Origin: a virus
Taxonomy: Duplodnaviria; Caudoviricetes
Strand: one strand, 5' to 3'
Length of the DNA: 64,000 nucleotides
IMG/VR virus record: IMGVR_UViG_3300021387_000796
Location: 154,067 to 218,066 of that record
Shown one piece after another: positions 1 to 64,000 of this stretch. Both the position numbers and the translations under genes were made by a program. The notes under the pieces were generated by a model. It saw only the letters and a list, made by a program, of their open reading frames with translations, ran no database searches and was not told the origin of the DNA. Each line of letters begins with the position of its first letter. Within the stretch, counting starts at the first letter, position 1.

Positions 1-875
1 TCTTTAAGCAAATCAAATGAAAGTTTCTTTCCCTCATTCACATTATAAGTTTTTTCTATAACATAATGACTGTCTTTATATTTTGTATAGTTTACATCGA
101 TTGAACTCAACATACTAAATCCAATAGTGCAAATTGTTGTAAATCCAAATATAAATGCACTCAACTTGTGATTATTTCTCCACGCCTTGCGAGTCATTTG
201 CGACCCTACTAAACCAAATGTGAGCATAGCGGTAGAAATAGCATAAGCAACAAATTTAGTCTGTAATCGCTGAAGATAGGTTCCTGTAAAATAAATGGAA
301 AGAATGGAACAAACAATCATCAAAGCAATCATCAGTTTTGGATATACGAATTCAAACAAATTGAATTCATTCTTTTCTTTTTCAACCTTTGGTTTTTCTT
401 CGACCTTTTTAGTTTCAACCACACTTTCTACTTTCTTTGGTTCGATGACTGTTTCAATTTTTGGTACAACAGTCTTTTCAACTTCCTTAGATTCTGCAAC
501 TTTTTCTACAGTCTTAGGTTTAAGAATTTCTTTGGTCTTTTCCGCCGACTGAATAGGATTTTTCACACGCTTAATTGGCGTAGGTTTAGAAACGACCGTT
601 GGTTTTGTAGTCTGTGTTGAACTTGATGTGGAGGTAAATTCCTTCTCTTTCTTTACATTTAATGCTTTCTTCACAAGTCTTTCGCTCTGTTTAGAAAGTG
701 TATAATCATAACCACCATTAGTGTTCTTCTTAGCATTGTAAGTTTCAGAAGTCATAGACTTAAACTCATCGTAAGGAATCAATACTCCATCAGAAGTAAG
801 GATTTCACCGTTCTTTGAATTTGGGAGATAGAAATAAGTTACTCCTAAATTTTCATTCTTCCACTGTTTAATCAT
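1..875 (-). CDS. Membrane protein with K/E/V-rich N-terminal region and about 3 TM segments (partial, runs off window)
   Basis: Manual translation from ATG 875 (MIKQWKNENLGVTYFYLP...) stays open to position 1; GAGG RBS and TTGACA..TATACT promoter upstream; hydrophobic stretches LMIALMIVCSILSIYF, FVAYAISTAMLTFGLVG, AFIFGFTTICTIGF. Not in the ORF track because it has no stop in the window. Confidence 0.8.
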   Translation of the reverse strand, partial: MIKQWKNENLGVTYFYLPNSKNGEILTSDGVLIPYDEFKSMTSETYNAKKNTNGGYDYTLSKQSERLVKKALNVKKEKEFTSTSSSTQTTKPTVVSKPTPIKRVKNPIQSAEKTKEILKPKTVEKVAESKEVEKTVVPKIETVIEPKKVESVVETKKVEEKPKVEKEKNEFNLFEFVYPKLMIALMIVCSILSIYFTGTYLQRLQTKFVAYAISTAMLTFGLVGSQMTRKAWRNNHKLSAFIFGFTTICTIGFSMLSSIDVNYTKYKDSHYVIEKTYNVNEGKKLSFDLLK

Positions 876-7984: not shown

Positions 7985-8905
7985 TTACATGTATAAAGTG
8001 TGCTGATTAATGACAGTAGTTCCTTTCTTTTCACCCACTTGTGGTGAAAAACCCATATAATTATTATTGTAAATATTTGTAATATTGTTTCCCATAATAC
8101 CAAAACTTGGAGTAATGGATTGAGTATATTTAAATTCTGCAATAACTAATCCATTCGAAGGATAATTTGGAGCATGTGCCAAACCAGAGGTTGCTTCGTC
8201 ACCCATAATATATCGTACCGAGCCATCATTCATCAATACGGCAATATCGATTCTAACTTTTCCAGAAGTTATACTAAGATTAATTTTATGATAATCTGTA
8301 TCAGTTTCTGTCAATATGATTGTTTCTTCATTATTTTTTTCCACCAACACACCATTTATTATGGCTTTACCTTTTCCAACAACAAAGCCGAATTCACTCG
8401 TTCGATTTTCAATTGGTGTAACATTAAAACTTGGTAAACTTGAATTATAAGAAGAATAATAATAGTCGTTATATTTTGAAGATGGACACCACGTTTTTCT
8501 AGTATAATCAAATTCTGTGCTTAAAGTGCCACCTTGGAAAACGGCTCGTCCTAAAATAATCGGATGATTCATCGAACTAATATCACTCAATGATTTTGTT
8601 TCAAAACTTACATAATTATTTACGGATTGACTCCAATTAAAACTTGCTACAACGAAAGGTTTTTGGCTATCCACCGCCATCACAAATGATTCTCTAGTTT
8701 CAACATGAACAATTATATTACCATCACCAATCAACAATTGCATTTCATCAACTTGTATTGTAGAATCGCCTGATTTTGTTAAAAGACCACCTGAAATAAC
8801 ACCCTCAGGTAACACTCCGCACAATAATTTATTAAAACCTTCAGCAGTACCTTCTTGTTGATATCTGAATGTAATTAATTGGTCTCCTGTATTAACACTT
8901 GCCAT
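7985..8905 (-). CDS. Putative baseplate/tail-fibre attachment protein
   Basis: Beta-rich, GVISGG and RIDIAVL motifs typical of tail proteins; TAACTATTT and GGAG upstream. Confidence 0.5.
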   Translation of the reverse strand: MASVNTGDQLITFRYQQEGTAEGFNKLLCGVLPEGVISGGLLTKSGDSTIQVDEMQLLIGDGNIIVHVETRESFVMAVDSQKPFVVASFNWSQSVNNYVSFETKSLSDISSMNHPIILGRAVFQGGTLSTEFDYTRKTWCPSSKYNDYYYSSYNSSLPSFNVTPIENRTSEFGFVVGKGKAIINGVLVEKNNEETIILTETDTDYHKINLSITSGKVRIDIAVLMNDGSVRYIMGDEATSGLAHAPNYPSNGLVIAEFKYTQSITPSFGIMGNNITNIYNNNYMGFSPQVGEKKGTTVINQHTLYM

Positions 8906-8993
8906 ATAAATCTCCAAATAAAAAATATTTTCTTATTAAATAGTTATATTTTTTTATATCACAAATTAAAATTAAAAGCAACTATATTCTTAA

Positions 8994-60280: not shown

Positions 60281-61231
60281 CTATAAATCAAACAAATCTT
60301 TTTTCATTTCATCATCATTTATCTTTATGATTTTCGCATTAATCTTTTCAAATTCATTCAAGAAAGATTTATGCTTATCATCATAAACATAAACAATTTC
60401 CGTATCATTATTCATTCCGTCAAACTTCCCATTTAGTATATTATGAACATGAAGATTATTTTTATATTCAAACGGATAACTTTGTACACCTACATCATGA
60501 CAAGCATGACACAACTCATCTTCATTTCTTGTACTACCGCAAATAACCTCATTGTAATAATTGCTCTTGTTCACCAATTCATTCAGATTATCGACCAATC
60601 CTTTTCTATCCAAATCAGATTCAACAACGATTATTTTATGTGGTTTATTTACATAATCCTTTCCTAAATATCTAGCCGAAATAAGAGAACGATTTATCCA
60701 TTTACTCATGTTTTTTCCACTACCATTAAGACTATCATAAATCTTGAACGGATATGTTACTTCATAAGGGTCTACTCCTTTAGGAAGATTCGTCATTAAA
60801 GATTCACAACCTTTAGTATATCTCTTAATCTCTTCCTTCATAACAGTCCAAGTTTTATGAGTTTTGTAATAATTCTTCAATTTGAAATGAGCGGTCTTAC
60901 AATAATATTTCTGACCATCATTCAACATCACTTCACCACAAAATTCATTCAATCTTGTACCAATCCCCATTCCTTGATAATCAGGTAACACTACCAACCT
61001 ATGACCCATCCAAAAATCCCTAATATCTCCGTTTGGCAAAAGTAGCATTGCTCTGAATCCTACAAGAATATCACCCCAATAGCATATGAAAACCCTACAT
61101 GGTGGTAAATTTGCTTCTTGTGTCAGATAATGATACTGCCTAAATATTTTCCAAAGGTCTTCTTTCTTTGAGTTGTCAGCGACCTCGTAGACTGACAACT
61201 CAATACTTTTTTTAGGTCTACCCCTCTGCAA
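60281..61231 (-). CDS. GNAT acetyltransferase domain (probably expressed as a -1 frameshift fusion to the upstream ATPase)
   Basis: WKIFRQYHYL, HRLVVLPDYQGMGIG acetyl-CoA motif; no good start or RBS of its own. Confidence 0.8.
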   Translation of the reverse strand: MQRGRPKKSIELSVYEVADNSKKEDLWKIFRQYHYLTQEANLPPCRVFICYWGDILVGFRAMLLLPNGDIRDFWMGHRLVVLPDYQGMGIGTRLNEFCGEVMLNDGQKYYCKTAHFKLKNYYKTHKTWTVMKEEIKRYTKGCESLMTNLPKGVDPYEVTYPFKIYDSLNGSGKNMSKWINRSLISARYLGKDYVNKPHKIIVVESDLDRKGLVDNLNELVNKSNYYNEVICGSTRNEDELCHACHDVGVQSYPFEYKNNLHVHNILNGKFDGMNNDTEIVYVYDDKHKSFLNEFEKINAKIIKINDDEMKKDLFDL

Positions 61232-61857
61232 TCATAAACTTTTTCATCATCCAAATCTATTACAATATCAGGTTCCAAATAATCAATATAATCTTTATGA
61301 CATGAACAGAACACAACCTTCTTCAAATTATGTTTTACTATATATTTCTTTATTCCCAAAACCGTACTAATTGCTACATTTCTATCTACAGTTGAAGTAA
61401 ATTCATCAAAACACATTTCACTCTGAATATTAAGTGCTAAATCGGCACGAAATCCTTCACCCACAGAAAGTACATTTCTAGGTCTACACCATGTAGGAAC
61501 AGTAGATAATCCAACGGATGCCAATCTATCCATACAATCTTCTTTATCTGTAAAATCAAAATTAGAAATTACAGACTTGGTGTTATCATAACTTCTGAAT
61601 TCTTTTGAATAAAATGGAAATTCTTTAAGAAGTTGTGATTTACCTTTTCCGCTAGAACCAGTAATTACGCAGATTTTATAATCAATTTCATTCAAAACTT
61701 TTGGTAATTTGTAAGGATAAAATTTACTTTCCCCTAAAAACTCATAATCAAAATACGATTGAGCCAATTGAGTATATTCATCACAAGGGATTTTTGAAAC
61801 CAAAGGTTCTTCTTTATGTTGTAGAACACTTAAAATTTTACAATCAGAATATGTCAT
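61123..61857 (-). CDS. ABC-type ATPase
   Basis: GSSGKGKS, LSVGE signature, FDEFTSTVD, SCH. Confidence 0.85.
   Translation of the reverse strand: MTYSDCKILSVLQHKEEPLVSKIPCDEYTQLAQSYFDYEFLGESKFYPYKLPKVLNEIDYKICVITGSSGKGKSQLLKEFPFYSKEFRSYDNTKSVISNFDFTDKEDCMDRLASVGLSTVPTWCRPRNVLSVGEGFRADLALNIQSEMCFDEFTSTVDRNVAISTVLGIKKYIVKHNLKKVVFCSCHKDYIDYLEPDIVIDLDDEKVYDCRGVDLKKVLSCQSTRSLTTQRKKTFGKYLGSIII
61168..61226 (-). promoter_or_regulatory. Programmed -1 ribosomal frameshift signal
   Basis: GAGGGG internal SD, in-frame A_AAA_AAA (61213-61207), 12-bp hairpin TTGAGTTGTCAG/CTGACAACTCAA. Confidence 0.75.
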
Positions 61858-61972
61858 ATTTTTCTCCATTTAGAAAAATTATAAAACAAATACATTCATT
61901 ATGTCAAGGAAAATTAATAAAAAAAAAGACAGTCCATTTTGAACTGTCTTACAAAGAACGAATTATATTTAA

Positions 61973-62239: not shown

Positions 62240-62443
62240 TTAATCTGAATATTTTTTACCGTTTTCCCAATAATCTGAAGAAATCATTACACCTACCGTG
62301 TATCTTCCTTCATAATTCATTGAAATCTGTTTTGCCAATTTAAACGCTTTAGAATATGTTTCAAACTCATTTATACATCCGCACATTGAATCATCTAATT
62401 GAACACCTTCATCTAAATCCATCACATAAAATATCGCACCCAT
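62240..62443 (-). CDS. Hypothetical protein
   Basis: GAGG RBS. Confidence 0.65.
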   Translation of the reverse strand: MGAIFYVMDLDEGVQLDDSMCGCINEFETYSKAFKLAKQISMNYEGRYTVGVMISSDYWENGKKYSD

Positions 62444-62464
62444 AAAACAAACCTCGTAAATTTT

Positions 62465-62827
62465 TTATTCTACCGCTTTCCAAATTACCTTGATGTTAAT
62501 ATCACTAGCAATTTTAATTTCTGAATCTTCTGTTACAATACTTTCATTAAAATAGTACATCGGATAATAACCGCTCTTTGAAAGTGCTTTTTTCTCAATA
62601 GCATATCCTATTGTTTGGAATGGATTTACTGTCTGTGTTGCTGAACTTCCATTACCACCATCACTAAAAGTTACGATAAATGTAGTAGCGGTATATGTTC
62701 CAAAAGGCTGATAATCATGTTCTAATGTTGAAGCATCATTTGGAAAATTATAAACTTTTGTAGATTGTGAAATTTCTTCACCATTAAGAACATTTTTATT
62801 ATCATTAAAAATAAAATTGTTAGCCAT
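62465..62827 (-). CDS. Putative virion decoration protein with an InlB B-repeat/Flg_new-like domain
   Basis: AGGAG RBS, TAACTATCT upstream; VTF..G..Q.V..K.GY..V.ED..I.VIW pattern. Confidence 0.5.
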   Translation of the reverse strand: MANNFIFNDNKNVLNGEEISQSTKVYNFPNDASTLEHDYQPFGTYTATTFIVTFSDGGNGSSATQTVNPFQTIGYAIEKKALSKSGYYPMYYFNESIVTEDSEIKIASDINIKVIWKAVE

Positions 62828-62874
62828 AAAAATTCTCCTATTAAAATAATATAAATAGATAGTTATTTTAACTG

Positions 62875-63120
62875 AACGGTTTGATTGAGCAATGGTATAA
62901 AACAAGTTCTATTAACTCAAAAAACTTTGAAACCGTGACCTTTAATGTTCAATTTAGTTCTAGTTTAATTCCTAATGGTACTTTTGGGTCACTTTATGAT
63001 AGTTCGGCAGATAGTACGACTGTAGTTCAATTAAGAAGTATTTCTAATACACAGGGTCAAATTAAAAATGCAACTTCTTCAACTGTAACTAATGCATTTG
63101 CTTTTTTTAGAGGGTATTAA
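62875..63120 (+). other. Silent tail-fibre tip cassette 1 (gp53-like C-terminal domain)
   Basis: NGLIEQWY...VTFNVQF...FFRGY*; in-frame stop two codons upstream, no RBS. Confidence 0.75.
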
Positions 63121-63122
63121 CG

Positions 63123-63371
63123 AACGGTTTAATTGAACAAGACTATGTTTATAAAAATACTGTCACAAGCGATTCTCAAGTTGAACAAACAATTAATTAT
63201 CTAGTGTATTTGCCAAGTGCTGATGATGGTTTTATACAAATTACAAGAGAAAGTACCCAAACAAATAGTGAAAAAAATTATGCTTGGATTAAATCTCATA
63301 CCGAAAAAGATTGCACTTTTATTTATAGACGAAATAATTATGGTAATGTATACATCAGTGTACGAAATTAG
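63123..63371 (+). other. Silent tail-fibre tip cassette 2
   Basis: Open frame NGLIEQDYVYKNTVTSDSQVEQTINYLVYLP...VYISVRN*, with no start codon at its 5' end (missed by the ORF track). Confidence 0.7.
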
Positions 63372-63373
63372 TG

Positions 63374-63598
63374 AACGGTTTGATTGAACAATGTGGACAA
63401 TCAACATCCATGATTAATAATACTACTATTACATTTCCAATAGTTATGTCCAACACTGATTATTGGGCGATTTGTGGAATGTGGTCTTATAATGCCACAA
63501 GTGCTAGTGACTATAATGCTAACTCTTTGGTGTTGAAACAATTGACTGATTCAATGTATGTTTATAAGACAAATAAATGGATGGTTTTGGGTTATTAA
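63374..63598 (+). other. Tail-fibre tip cassette 3
   Basis: NGLIEQCG..TITFPIVM..WMVLGY*. Confidence 0.75.
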
Positions 63599-63828
63599 TA
63601 TCCTATCGCAAACCATCTAACCGTTAAATCATTGATAGAAACAGTATATTTGAAATTATCTTTGGTTATAGTATATGCGAATGTAGTATAGTAAACTGGA
63701 TTCTGTGTTGATTGTCTCTCTTGTGAAGCATATACAACAGGTGGTTTCAAGAAACTAATAACATAATCATATTGATTCTCTCCTGATGGTTGGTTAATAA
63801 GACTTCCCCATTGTTCAATCAAACCGTT
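63595..63828 (-). other. Silent tail-fibre tip cassette 4 (inverted)
   Basis: NGLIEQWG..YVISFLKPP..WFAIGY*; in-frame TGA a few codons upstream. Confidence 0.75.
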
Positions 63829-64000
63829 CCTATGAATTATATAATTAATTCAAGATACTTCATTAATTAAATTCTCATATAAAATTTATTATAGATTTTA
63901 AATAAAAGAAAGAAAATTTAAATCATAAATTTAATTAGAAAAGTATTCTAATTAAAAATTTTATAATTTTATAGTAAATCTTTGTTATAAAATTTGAAAT

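Follow-up and report, generated by a model that had tools for sequence, protein, structure and literature searches.

A probable multiple-inversion switch of tail-fibre tips in a large ruminant-gut phage

The window that was analysed, i.e. the whole stretch of 64,000 nucleotides (G000:154067-218066), represents the last 64 kb of a linear IMG/VR record of 218,066 bp and carries, close to its end, four short cassettes that are each headed by the same 19-bp site. We consider it probable (around three chances in four) that these cassettes are silent receptor-binding tips of one multiple-inversion switch in a ~227-kb uncultivated ruminant-gut phage, and that this switch is served by a remote Gin-like invertase. 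What was observed directly is the architecture, the occurrence of the site in frame within a fibre gene, and the fact that tips and contexts are paired differently in different relatives.

The whole cluster lies between two fixed genes and every module end abuts a copy of the site. One movable constant module consists of a promoter and around 300 fibre codons ending in ...SSYTVYA, and a second movable module comprises 1.7 kb with a 387-aa gene. According to the mechanism that we propose, recombination between two inverted sites would flip the intervening DNA and so join the constant module in frame to another tip, by which the fibre tip and probably also the receptor bound would change. The tip expressed in this assembly is the one found in the next contig (L069). 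Of the nine silent tips, six could be fused by one inversion, cassettes 1-3 among them, and cassette 4 would need two. The invertase would act on a site of 12-2-12 layout with core AA. In this way, a very large gut phage would offer ten alternative tips on one small fibre.

Crossover sites and tip cassettes in the window

A search of the window with the 19-mer GAACGGTTTRATTGARCAA recovered four exact matches, three on the plus strand (site 1, 62874..62892; site 2, 63122..63140; site 3, 63373..63391) and one on the minus strand (site 4, 63811..63829). The average number expected by chance is 0.04, and none of 100 shuffles reached four. Each copy opens a frame that starts with NGLIEQ and runs for 81, 82, 74 and 77 codons in cassettes 1 to 4, respectively. 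Cassettes 1 (62875..63120, +), 3 (63374..63598, +) and 4 (63595..63828, -) end in GY-stop, specifically in RGY, LGY and IGY, and cassette 2 (63123..63371, +) ends in VRN. Between cassettes 1 and 2 and between cassettes 2 and 3 the stop is separated from the following site by 1 nt, and cassettes 3 and 4 are arranged tail-to-tail with overlapping stops. The positions of the 19-mer, the frames of 74-82 codons and this dense packing had all been reported in a preliminary description of the DNA and were recovered as such. The nearest upstream in-frame stops are found 1, 4, 9 and 7 codons before cassettes 1 to 4, so none of the cassettes is fused to anything within the window, in line with the earlier remark that a fibre N-terminus is lacking there.

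To characterize the site, 41 distinct contexts from the phage and its relatives were compared. Starting at the G that precedes the Asn codon, and across the rest of the site, the information content is ~2 bits, also at the third codon positions (C, T and T), and it drops on both sides. The abrupt start of the identity at this G and the preservation of most synonymous positions had both been noted before.

The proposal that the cassettes encode alternative C-terminal tips of tail fibres is supported by matches to the Gp53-like_C domain (PF21882; gathering cut-off 24.9 bits) in three of the four. Cassette 4 (34.9 bits) and cassette 3 (25.7 bits) score above the cut-off and cassette 1 (20.8 bits) scores under it. 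Cassette 2 had no Pfam match and therefore does not qualify as Gp53-like_C by score; nevertheless, the same type serves as a fibre tip in a relative (L020). In addition, cassette 4 matched an H-type lectin (E 0.002), and the PHROG matches of the cassettes were to tail-fibre and virion structural families. In L046, a tip related to cassette 3 lies next to the fibre module, at its 5' end, and the tip of cassette 4 is also present in L027 and L034, in a different context.

On the left, the cluster is bordered by a gene of 120 aa (62465..62827, -), which starts with ATG preceded by an AGGAG ribosome site. The gene also flanks the cluster in L026, L029, L048 and L071, and as a fixed border it is outside the switch itself. 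On the right, the window ends with the first 171 nt of the 1.7-kb module S (63830..64000, no strand assigned), which were recognized by flank identity as the non-coding 3' region of the 387-aa gene. The preliminary description had both flanks non-coding and neither a fibre gene nor a recombinase adjacent. However, the left flank is the start of the 120-aa gene, and the right flank measures only 171 nt because the contig ends at 64000. A promoter and terminator scan of positions 62400-64000 yielded no more hits than were obtained in shuffles, and the folding of the flank was slightly better than that of shuffles (z = -2.3). In the flank, AAGATACTT...TAATT and, ~100 nt away, its complement also form an imperfect inverted repeat, which recurs in the intergenic region of L071.

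Two other loci in the window deserve mention. The ORFs at 60281-61231 (-) and 61123-61869 (-) overlap by ~109 nt and match successive parts of phrog_11143 (8-191 and 200-326); the downstream ORF has a GNAT acetyltransferase domain and the same split is found in L026. The pair may represent a frameshift-joined or a split gene. At 7985-8917 (-) a protein of 310 aa is encoded among baseplate-like genes, which lacks a tip domain and is 34% identical to the first 180 residues of a 524-aa fibre of a more distant relative (G001).

The complete cluster and its fibre gene

The record was estimated to be 92% complete, and only 171 nt separate the site of cassette 4 from its end. Beyond the four cassettes, the rest of the 218-kb contig contains no further site, NGLIEQ frame or Gp53-like_C domain. 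The end itself recurs between assemblies. An ENA contig (L017) equals the last 11.5 kb of the window with 0 mismatches and ends at the same base, and a viral contig from another sample (L008), the sole match of a 37-mer from the flank in a search of viral contigs, is 98% identical in the flank and stops 15 nt further on. Three assemblies thus end within 15 nt of window position 64000. In the source sample, part of the flank (63841-63956; bin 63828-63928) is covered around six times as deeply as the adjoining bins, and at 63942-63952 the contigs branch. The same sample has loose ends at 63829, which were considered as alternative junctions of cassette 4 and turned out to be other sites of the same cluster. 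Stretches without cover in the runs X2, X3 and X5 were not counted as evidence.

The missing part was recovered as a contig of 10,304 bp (L069) from the same ENA assembly as L017. Its last 1537 nt are identical to G000 1-1537, it reaches 8767 nt upstream of the first base of G000, and with relatives as a ruler it starts ~128 nt after window position 64000. Based on the overlaps of L017 and L069 with G000, the genome map closes at ~227 kb. The site of the fibre gene then lies ~2.3 kb beyond the contig end, within the same cluster.

The full cluster contains ten tips, one of which is expressed: four in the window (+,+,+,-) and six in L069. It starts with the 120-aa gene (-), followed by cassettes 1-3 (+), cassette 4 (-), module S, and the tips and fibre gene of L069. 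In the latter contig, a tip with the variant NGLIEE (L069:1410, +) and a silent tip (L069:1687, +) precede the fibre gene of 376 aa (L069:1935-3065, -). Within this gene the site occurs in frame at L069:2156 (-), with 334 open codons upstream, and the protein reads ...SSYTVYA/NGLIEQWGK... across the junction. Further silent tips are located at L069:3120 (+) and L069:3630 (-), and a tip with the variant NGYIEQ at L069:3853 (-), past which small genes follow up to G000 position 1. The C-terminus of the 376-aa fibre matches Gp53-like_C and its middle matches PHROG tail and tail-collar-fibre families. Hence, the copy of the 19-mer in frame within a long fibre gene and the additional cassettes, which had been named as support for a shufflon-like in-frame crossover site, are both present, the latter in the form of the six tips of L069.

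Some variation was seen at the expressed site. In L046 (reverse strand, ~4079-3844) and L055:924-960 the expressed fibre has a mutated site that reads NGYIEQ and differs by three base changes; the otherwise identical L026 has the canonical site, and the NGYIEQ variant is the one also found at L069:3853. Alleles with an NGYIEQ site may be 'locked'. Another recurrent element is TAACTAT, which occurs on the strand that reads away from the site, immediately ahead of each of three genes (border, fibre and 387-aa); it is found at the non-coding module ends, for example at window 62840-62860 (-) and L069:3085-3100 (-). In G000 there are 95 copies, compared to 43-77 in Markov simulations, and it looks like a promoter-like element of the modules, perhaps part of a promoter or leader, that is separate from the site.

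Module S sits between inverted sites. Its flank is 94-98% identical in L008, L026, L034 and L046, and relative to the border genes the module is oriented one way in the window and L034 and the opposite way in L026, L029 and L046. The 387-aa gene (L069:24-1187, -) starts ~150 nt beyond window position 64000, and in L026 the same gene (L026:8580-9743, +) occupies an invertible module of its own, flanked by two sites. No Pfam or PHROG family matched the protein, and in the ESM Atlas it matches its own cluster only; 26 relatives down to 40% identity were found, most of them on contigs of 1-9 kb. Its AlphaFold model is confident (pLDDT 90), and residues 8-190 give weak but consistent matches to RecU, Hjc resolvases, restriction enzymes and I-Ssp6803I, with best fold scores of E 0.02 in Foldseek (RecU) and a Z of up to 5.0 in VIA. 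As a lead, the protein may therefore contain a PD-(D/E)XK nuclease-like domain. The gene is located directly upstream of the fibre gene in the cassette-less locus L071 and in the simpler clusters L072 and L073. Its presence in L071 indicates that it is an old neighbour of the fibre gene rather than specific for the switch.

The preliminary description had viewed the cassettes as a silent archive that is uncoupled from its expression locus and would have to be serviced by long-range inversion or by gene conversion into a distant fibre gene. Taken by itself, the 218-kb contig, with no other copy of the site and no other Gp53-like_C domain, would indeed suggest such an orphan archive. However, the contig is incomplete and its end is an assembly break, the adjoining contig of the same assembly contributes to the same cluster a fibre gene that includes the site, relatives have the same layout, and an origin of L069 from another strain is disfavoured by the perfect overlap of 1537 nt with the contig start. 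We consequently abandoned a detached archive as extremely unlikely. The cassettes could also be imagined to be translated as independent small proteins from TTG/GTG codons. An in-frame TTG or GTG is present within the site of cassettes 1, 3 and 4, and gene callers give some of the cassettes as genes of 71-88 aa, but the start codons are inconsistent and there is none in the site of cassette 2, no ribosome site precedes the cassettes, and the promoter scan did no better than shuffles. Considering also that the identical sequence continues a 300-codon fibre in frame in five relatives as well as in this phage, separate translation is very unlikely. More generally, a cassette store without a gene at the end of a contig should be read first as a truncated shufflon, as such switches break assemblies.

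Re-pairing of tips among relatives

Metagenome contigs were scanned with the 19-mer, which yielded 33 loci, about a dozen of which represented relatives with 2-7 sites. A threshold of 70% identity was used to group the tips into types, and blastn served to locate the constant part, module S and both border genes. A full fibre gene reads through the site in the loci of five relatives, among them L020, L026, L027/L034 and L039. The comparison of cassette order made clear that the same tips occur in other places and orientations. More explicitly, the cassette 2 type is preceded by cassette 1 in the window, by the constant part in L020 and by the end of module S in L026 and L046. In L020 it is fused in frame, with 307 open codons upstream, and is thus expressed; in L026 and L046 it is silent. 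On its 3' side, four different tips are found in four contigs. Likewise, L026 expresses tip 15, which is silent in L027, L034 and L039, and L069 expresses tip 17, of which L026, L039 and L046 carry silent copies. In the aligned junctions the G preceding AAC is always the point at which identity changes. In a sheep-gut run (X2), a Logan contig (L056) links site 4 and the flank, by way of module S, to a cassette-2-like tip.

Where a tip is shared, most differences between its silent and its expressed copies are synonymous (pooled pN/pS 0.38), which indicates that the tips are maintained as coding sequence. The tip sets vary between relatives and include more than 30 types, so that processes besides inversion, such as exchange between genomes, must also act. 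The pool of more than 30 tips circulates among the relatives behind one conserved 19-bp junction, and this junction provides a simple handle to find and count such switches in metagenomes. From the differences between samples we infer that switching probably occurs within the phage population and not only over evolutionary time; no flipped form was seen within one sample among Logan contigs, which drop minority variants. In the more distant relative G001, two convergent cassette pairs are located on either side of the 524-aa fibre, whose own junction has degenerated. A search of viral contigs with the constant part recovered two distant relatives, neither of which has cassettes or an invertase; two are too few for an analysis of co-occurrence.

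Candidate recombinase and known systems

Phage_integrase (PF00589) had no match in G000, G001 and G002, with matches in 14 of 14 control genomes, and the Pfam families listed for genes called in L069 include no tyrosine recombinase. Since no integrase was found in the 218-kb contig and the gap contig L069, the phage may be non-temperate. A recombinase, which had been named as further support, is encoded and is of the serine type (G000:79494-80174; 226 aa). The protein starts with MIYGYIRVST..., contains the catalytic motif YIRVST and a C-terminal HTH, and matches Resolvase (E 4e-34) and the PHROG 'DNA invertase' (E 3e-50); its best match among solved structures is Gin of phage Mu (E 2e-18). 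On the closed map the gene is located ~85 kb from the cluster and thus not adjacent to it, with a large fibre-like gene on each side. Around it, the only inverted repeats are short AT-rich matches, so no local target was found.

The link between this enzyme and the sites is provided by a homologue. Nine invertase homologues were collected from viral contigs, and the one in L060 (73% identity) is located 66 nt from a segment of 570 nt that is bounded by inverted repeats of 48 nt and lies inside a 256-aa fibre. The junction of L060, ...GNPLVLSSSSYSIYA followed by NGY..., aligns with ...GNPVVNSYFSTNSSYTVYA followed by NGL... of this phage (E 2e-5), and the L060 repeat and the expressed junction of this phage have TATGCGAACGG in common. 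The eight other homologous invertase loci showed no such site within 6 kb, and Gp53-like_C is absent from all nine contigs. The latter is no counter-evidence, because the tips of the L060 fibre inversion segment are themselves not Gp53-like by Pfam. L060 has a second, unrelated pair of inverted repeats (L060:7257-7309 and 8002-8054; 53 nt, 98% complementary), which lies across the invertase gene from the first pair and encloses the end of another fibre-like gene. A single invertase may serve two switches there. In G001 the distance between the homologue (L016:1327-1925, -) and the cluster is a few kb. An IS200/IS605-type element (TnpB and Y1 transposase), inserted just upstream of ...FTRVST, has cost this gene its start and first codons. 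Given the truncated invertase and the degenerate site at the fibre junction, the G001 switch may be frozen.

Sites of the Hin/Gin type consist of 12 + 2 + 12 bp. When the junction is read as such a 26-bp site, the core would be AA, the tip-side half CGGTTTGATTGA is invariant and the other half is weakly conserved, which is unusual for Hin/Gin sites. The variable half-sites have on average 6 of 12 positions in common with the conserved half in inverted form, compared to 3.2 (sd 1.5) for 12-mers from the window. By eye, the L060 repeat fits the same layout at 7 of 12 positions, and the inverted tip-side half agrees with the constant-side half of the L060 site at 9 of 12. The 12-2-12 reading would account for the fact that the identity starts exactly at the G before the Asn codon, and for the fixed AAC in a genome with 29% G+C. 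The enzyme is likely to be the phage's own Gin-like serine invertase, whose connection to these sites rests on the L060 homologue.

Other assignments of the activity have to be weighed against this one. The same shufflon could be operated by a host enzyme, such as an Xer-type or other tyrosine invertase, or by a phage protein that escaped recognition. The distance of ~85 kb between the serine invertase and the sites would fit with that, as would the lack of such sites near most invertase homologues and the conservation of only 19 bp on one side of the site, which resembles the asymmetric sfx sites of Rci. However, Phage_integrase is missing from G000, G001 and G002 and from the families listed for L069, the L060 homologue adjoins a fibre inversion segment with a homologous junction, and the core AA with flanking CG...CG fits the 12-2-12 layout of serine invertases, which makes another recombinase rather unlikely. 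We likewise give little weight to the notion that the sites, besides being inversion points, act as an exchange platform, at which whole tips are swapped between co-infecting genomes by the remote invertase in trans, possibly with help of the nuclease-like 387-aa gene in its own invertible module; it is suggested by the 19-mer being common to relatives whose tips are of more than 30 types. It is unlikely, too, that there is no programmed switch and that the cassettes are leftovers of occasional homologous or annealing recombination and of cassette exchange between co-infecting phages. The 387-aa protein, with its weak matches to PD-(D/E)XK nuclease folds, might act as a stimulator of such events, tip repertoires with more than 30 types vary between relatives, and variants within a sample were not seen in contigs that drop minority variants. 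Yet a stretch of 19 bp is very short for homology-driven exchange, the synonymous positions of the site are invariant while the remainder of each tip diverges, and the silent tips are under purifying selection (pN/pS 0.38). In addition, stop-to-site packing and paired inverted orientation are what an inversion system requires, and the 387-aa gene is not specific for the switch, considering that it adjoins the fibre gene in the cassette-less L071. A multiple-inversion switch with the phage's own invertase therefore remains the preferred reading.

Systems of this type are known from plasmids and phages. In the R64/IncI shufflon, multiple inversions among 19-bp sfx sites, of which one arm is conserved, select one C-terminus of an adhesin. 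The present cluster is similar in having 19-bp sites with one conserved arm and several C-termini, whereas the R64 system concerns a plasmid pilus adhesin (pilV) instead of a phage fibre, and has an adjacent tyrosine recombinase, Rci, and the constant part at the edge.

Closer counterparts are found among phages, where the switching of tips by inversion is established for Gin of Mu, Cin of P1 and the six-site Min of the plasmid prophage p15B, all relying on serine invertases (PMC6109161). The likeness to these systems includes start-less alternative fibre C-termini in both orientations, short in-frame sites at the junction of the constant and variable parts, and a small serine invertase whose catalytic domain is N-terminal and whose HTH is C-terminal. 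In contrast to the six mix sites of Min and the two sites of Gin and Cin, there are ten tips and sites here; the constant part and promoter are located in the middle of the array and flip themselves; the invertase gene is not a neighbour but lies at a distance of ~85 kb; strong conservation is confined to one half-site; the tips travel without tail-fibre assembly genes; and the phage is ~227 kb in size, with no integrase found.

The Rin shufflon of dnaJ2-integrated prophages in Bifidobacterium selects among five variable receptor-binding C-termini by way of short asymmetric repeats, and its arrangements vary between prophages and induced virions (PMC6109161). It differs from the present cluster in its adjacent tyrosine recombinase, of which none was found here, its sites of 11 bp instead of 19 bp, and the position of the constant gene at the edge. 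In BV01-like Phocaeicola phages the distal end of a tail-fibre gene overlaps with an inversion region of several cassettes, every configuration of which was detected in reads (PMC13596623). The location of the inversion region at the distal end of the fibre gene is shared with the present phage, but the BV01-like phages are temperate and have three cassettes, motifs of 10 bp and a 1.7-kb window that is flanked by the recombinase. Tail-fibre genes are also among the enriched targets of programmed inversions in bacterial genomes (PMC9881135). The mechanism as such is thus already known, and what is distinctive here are the ten tips, the internal constant module that flips, the cargo module that flips and the remote invertase.
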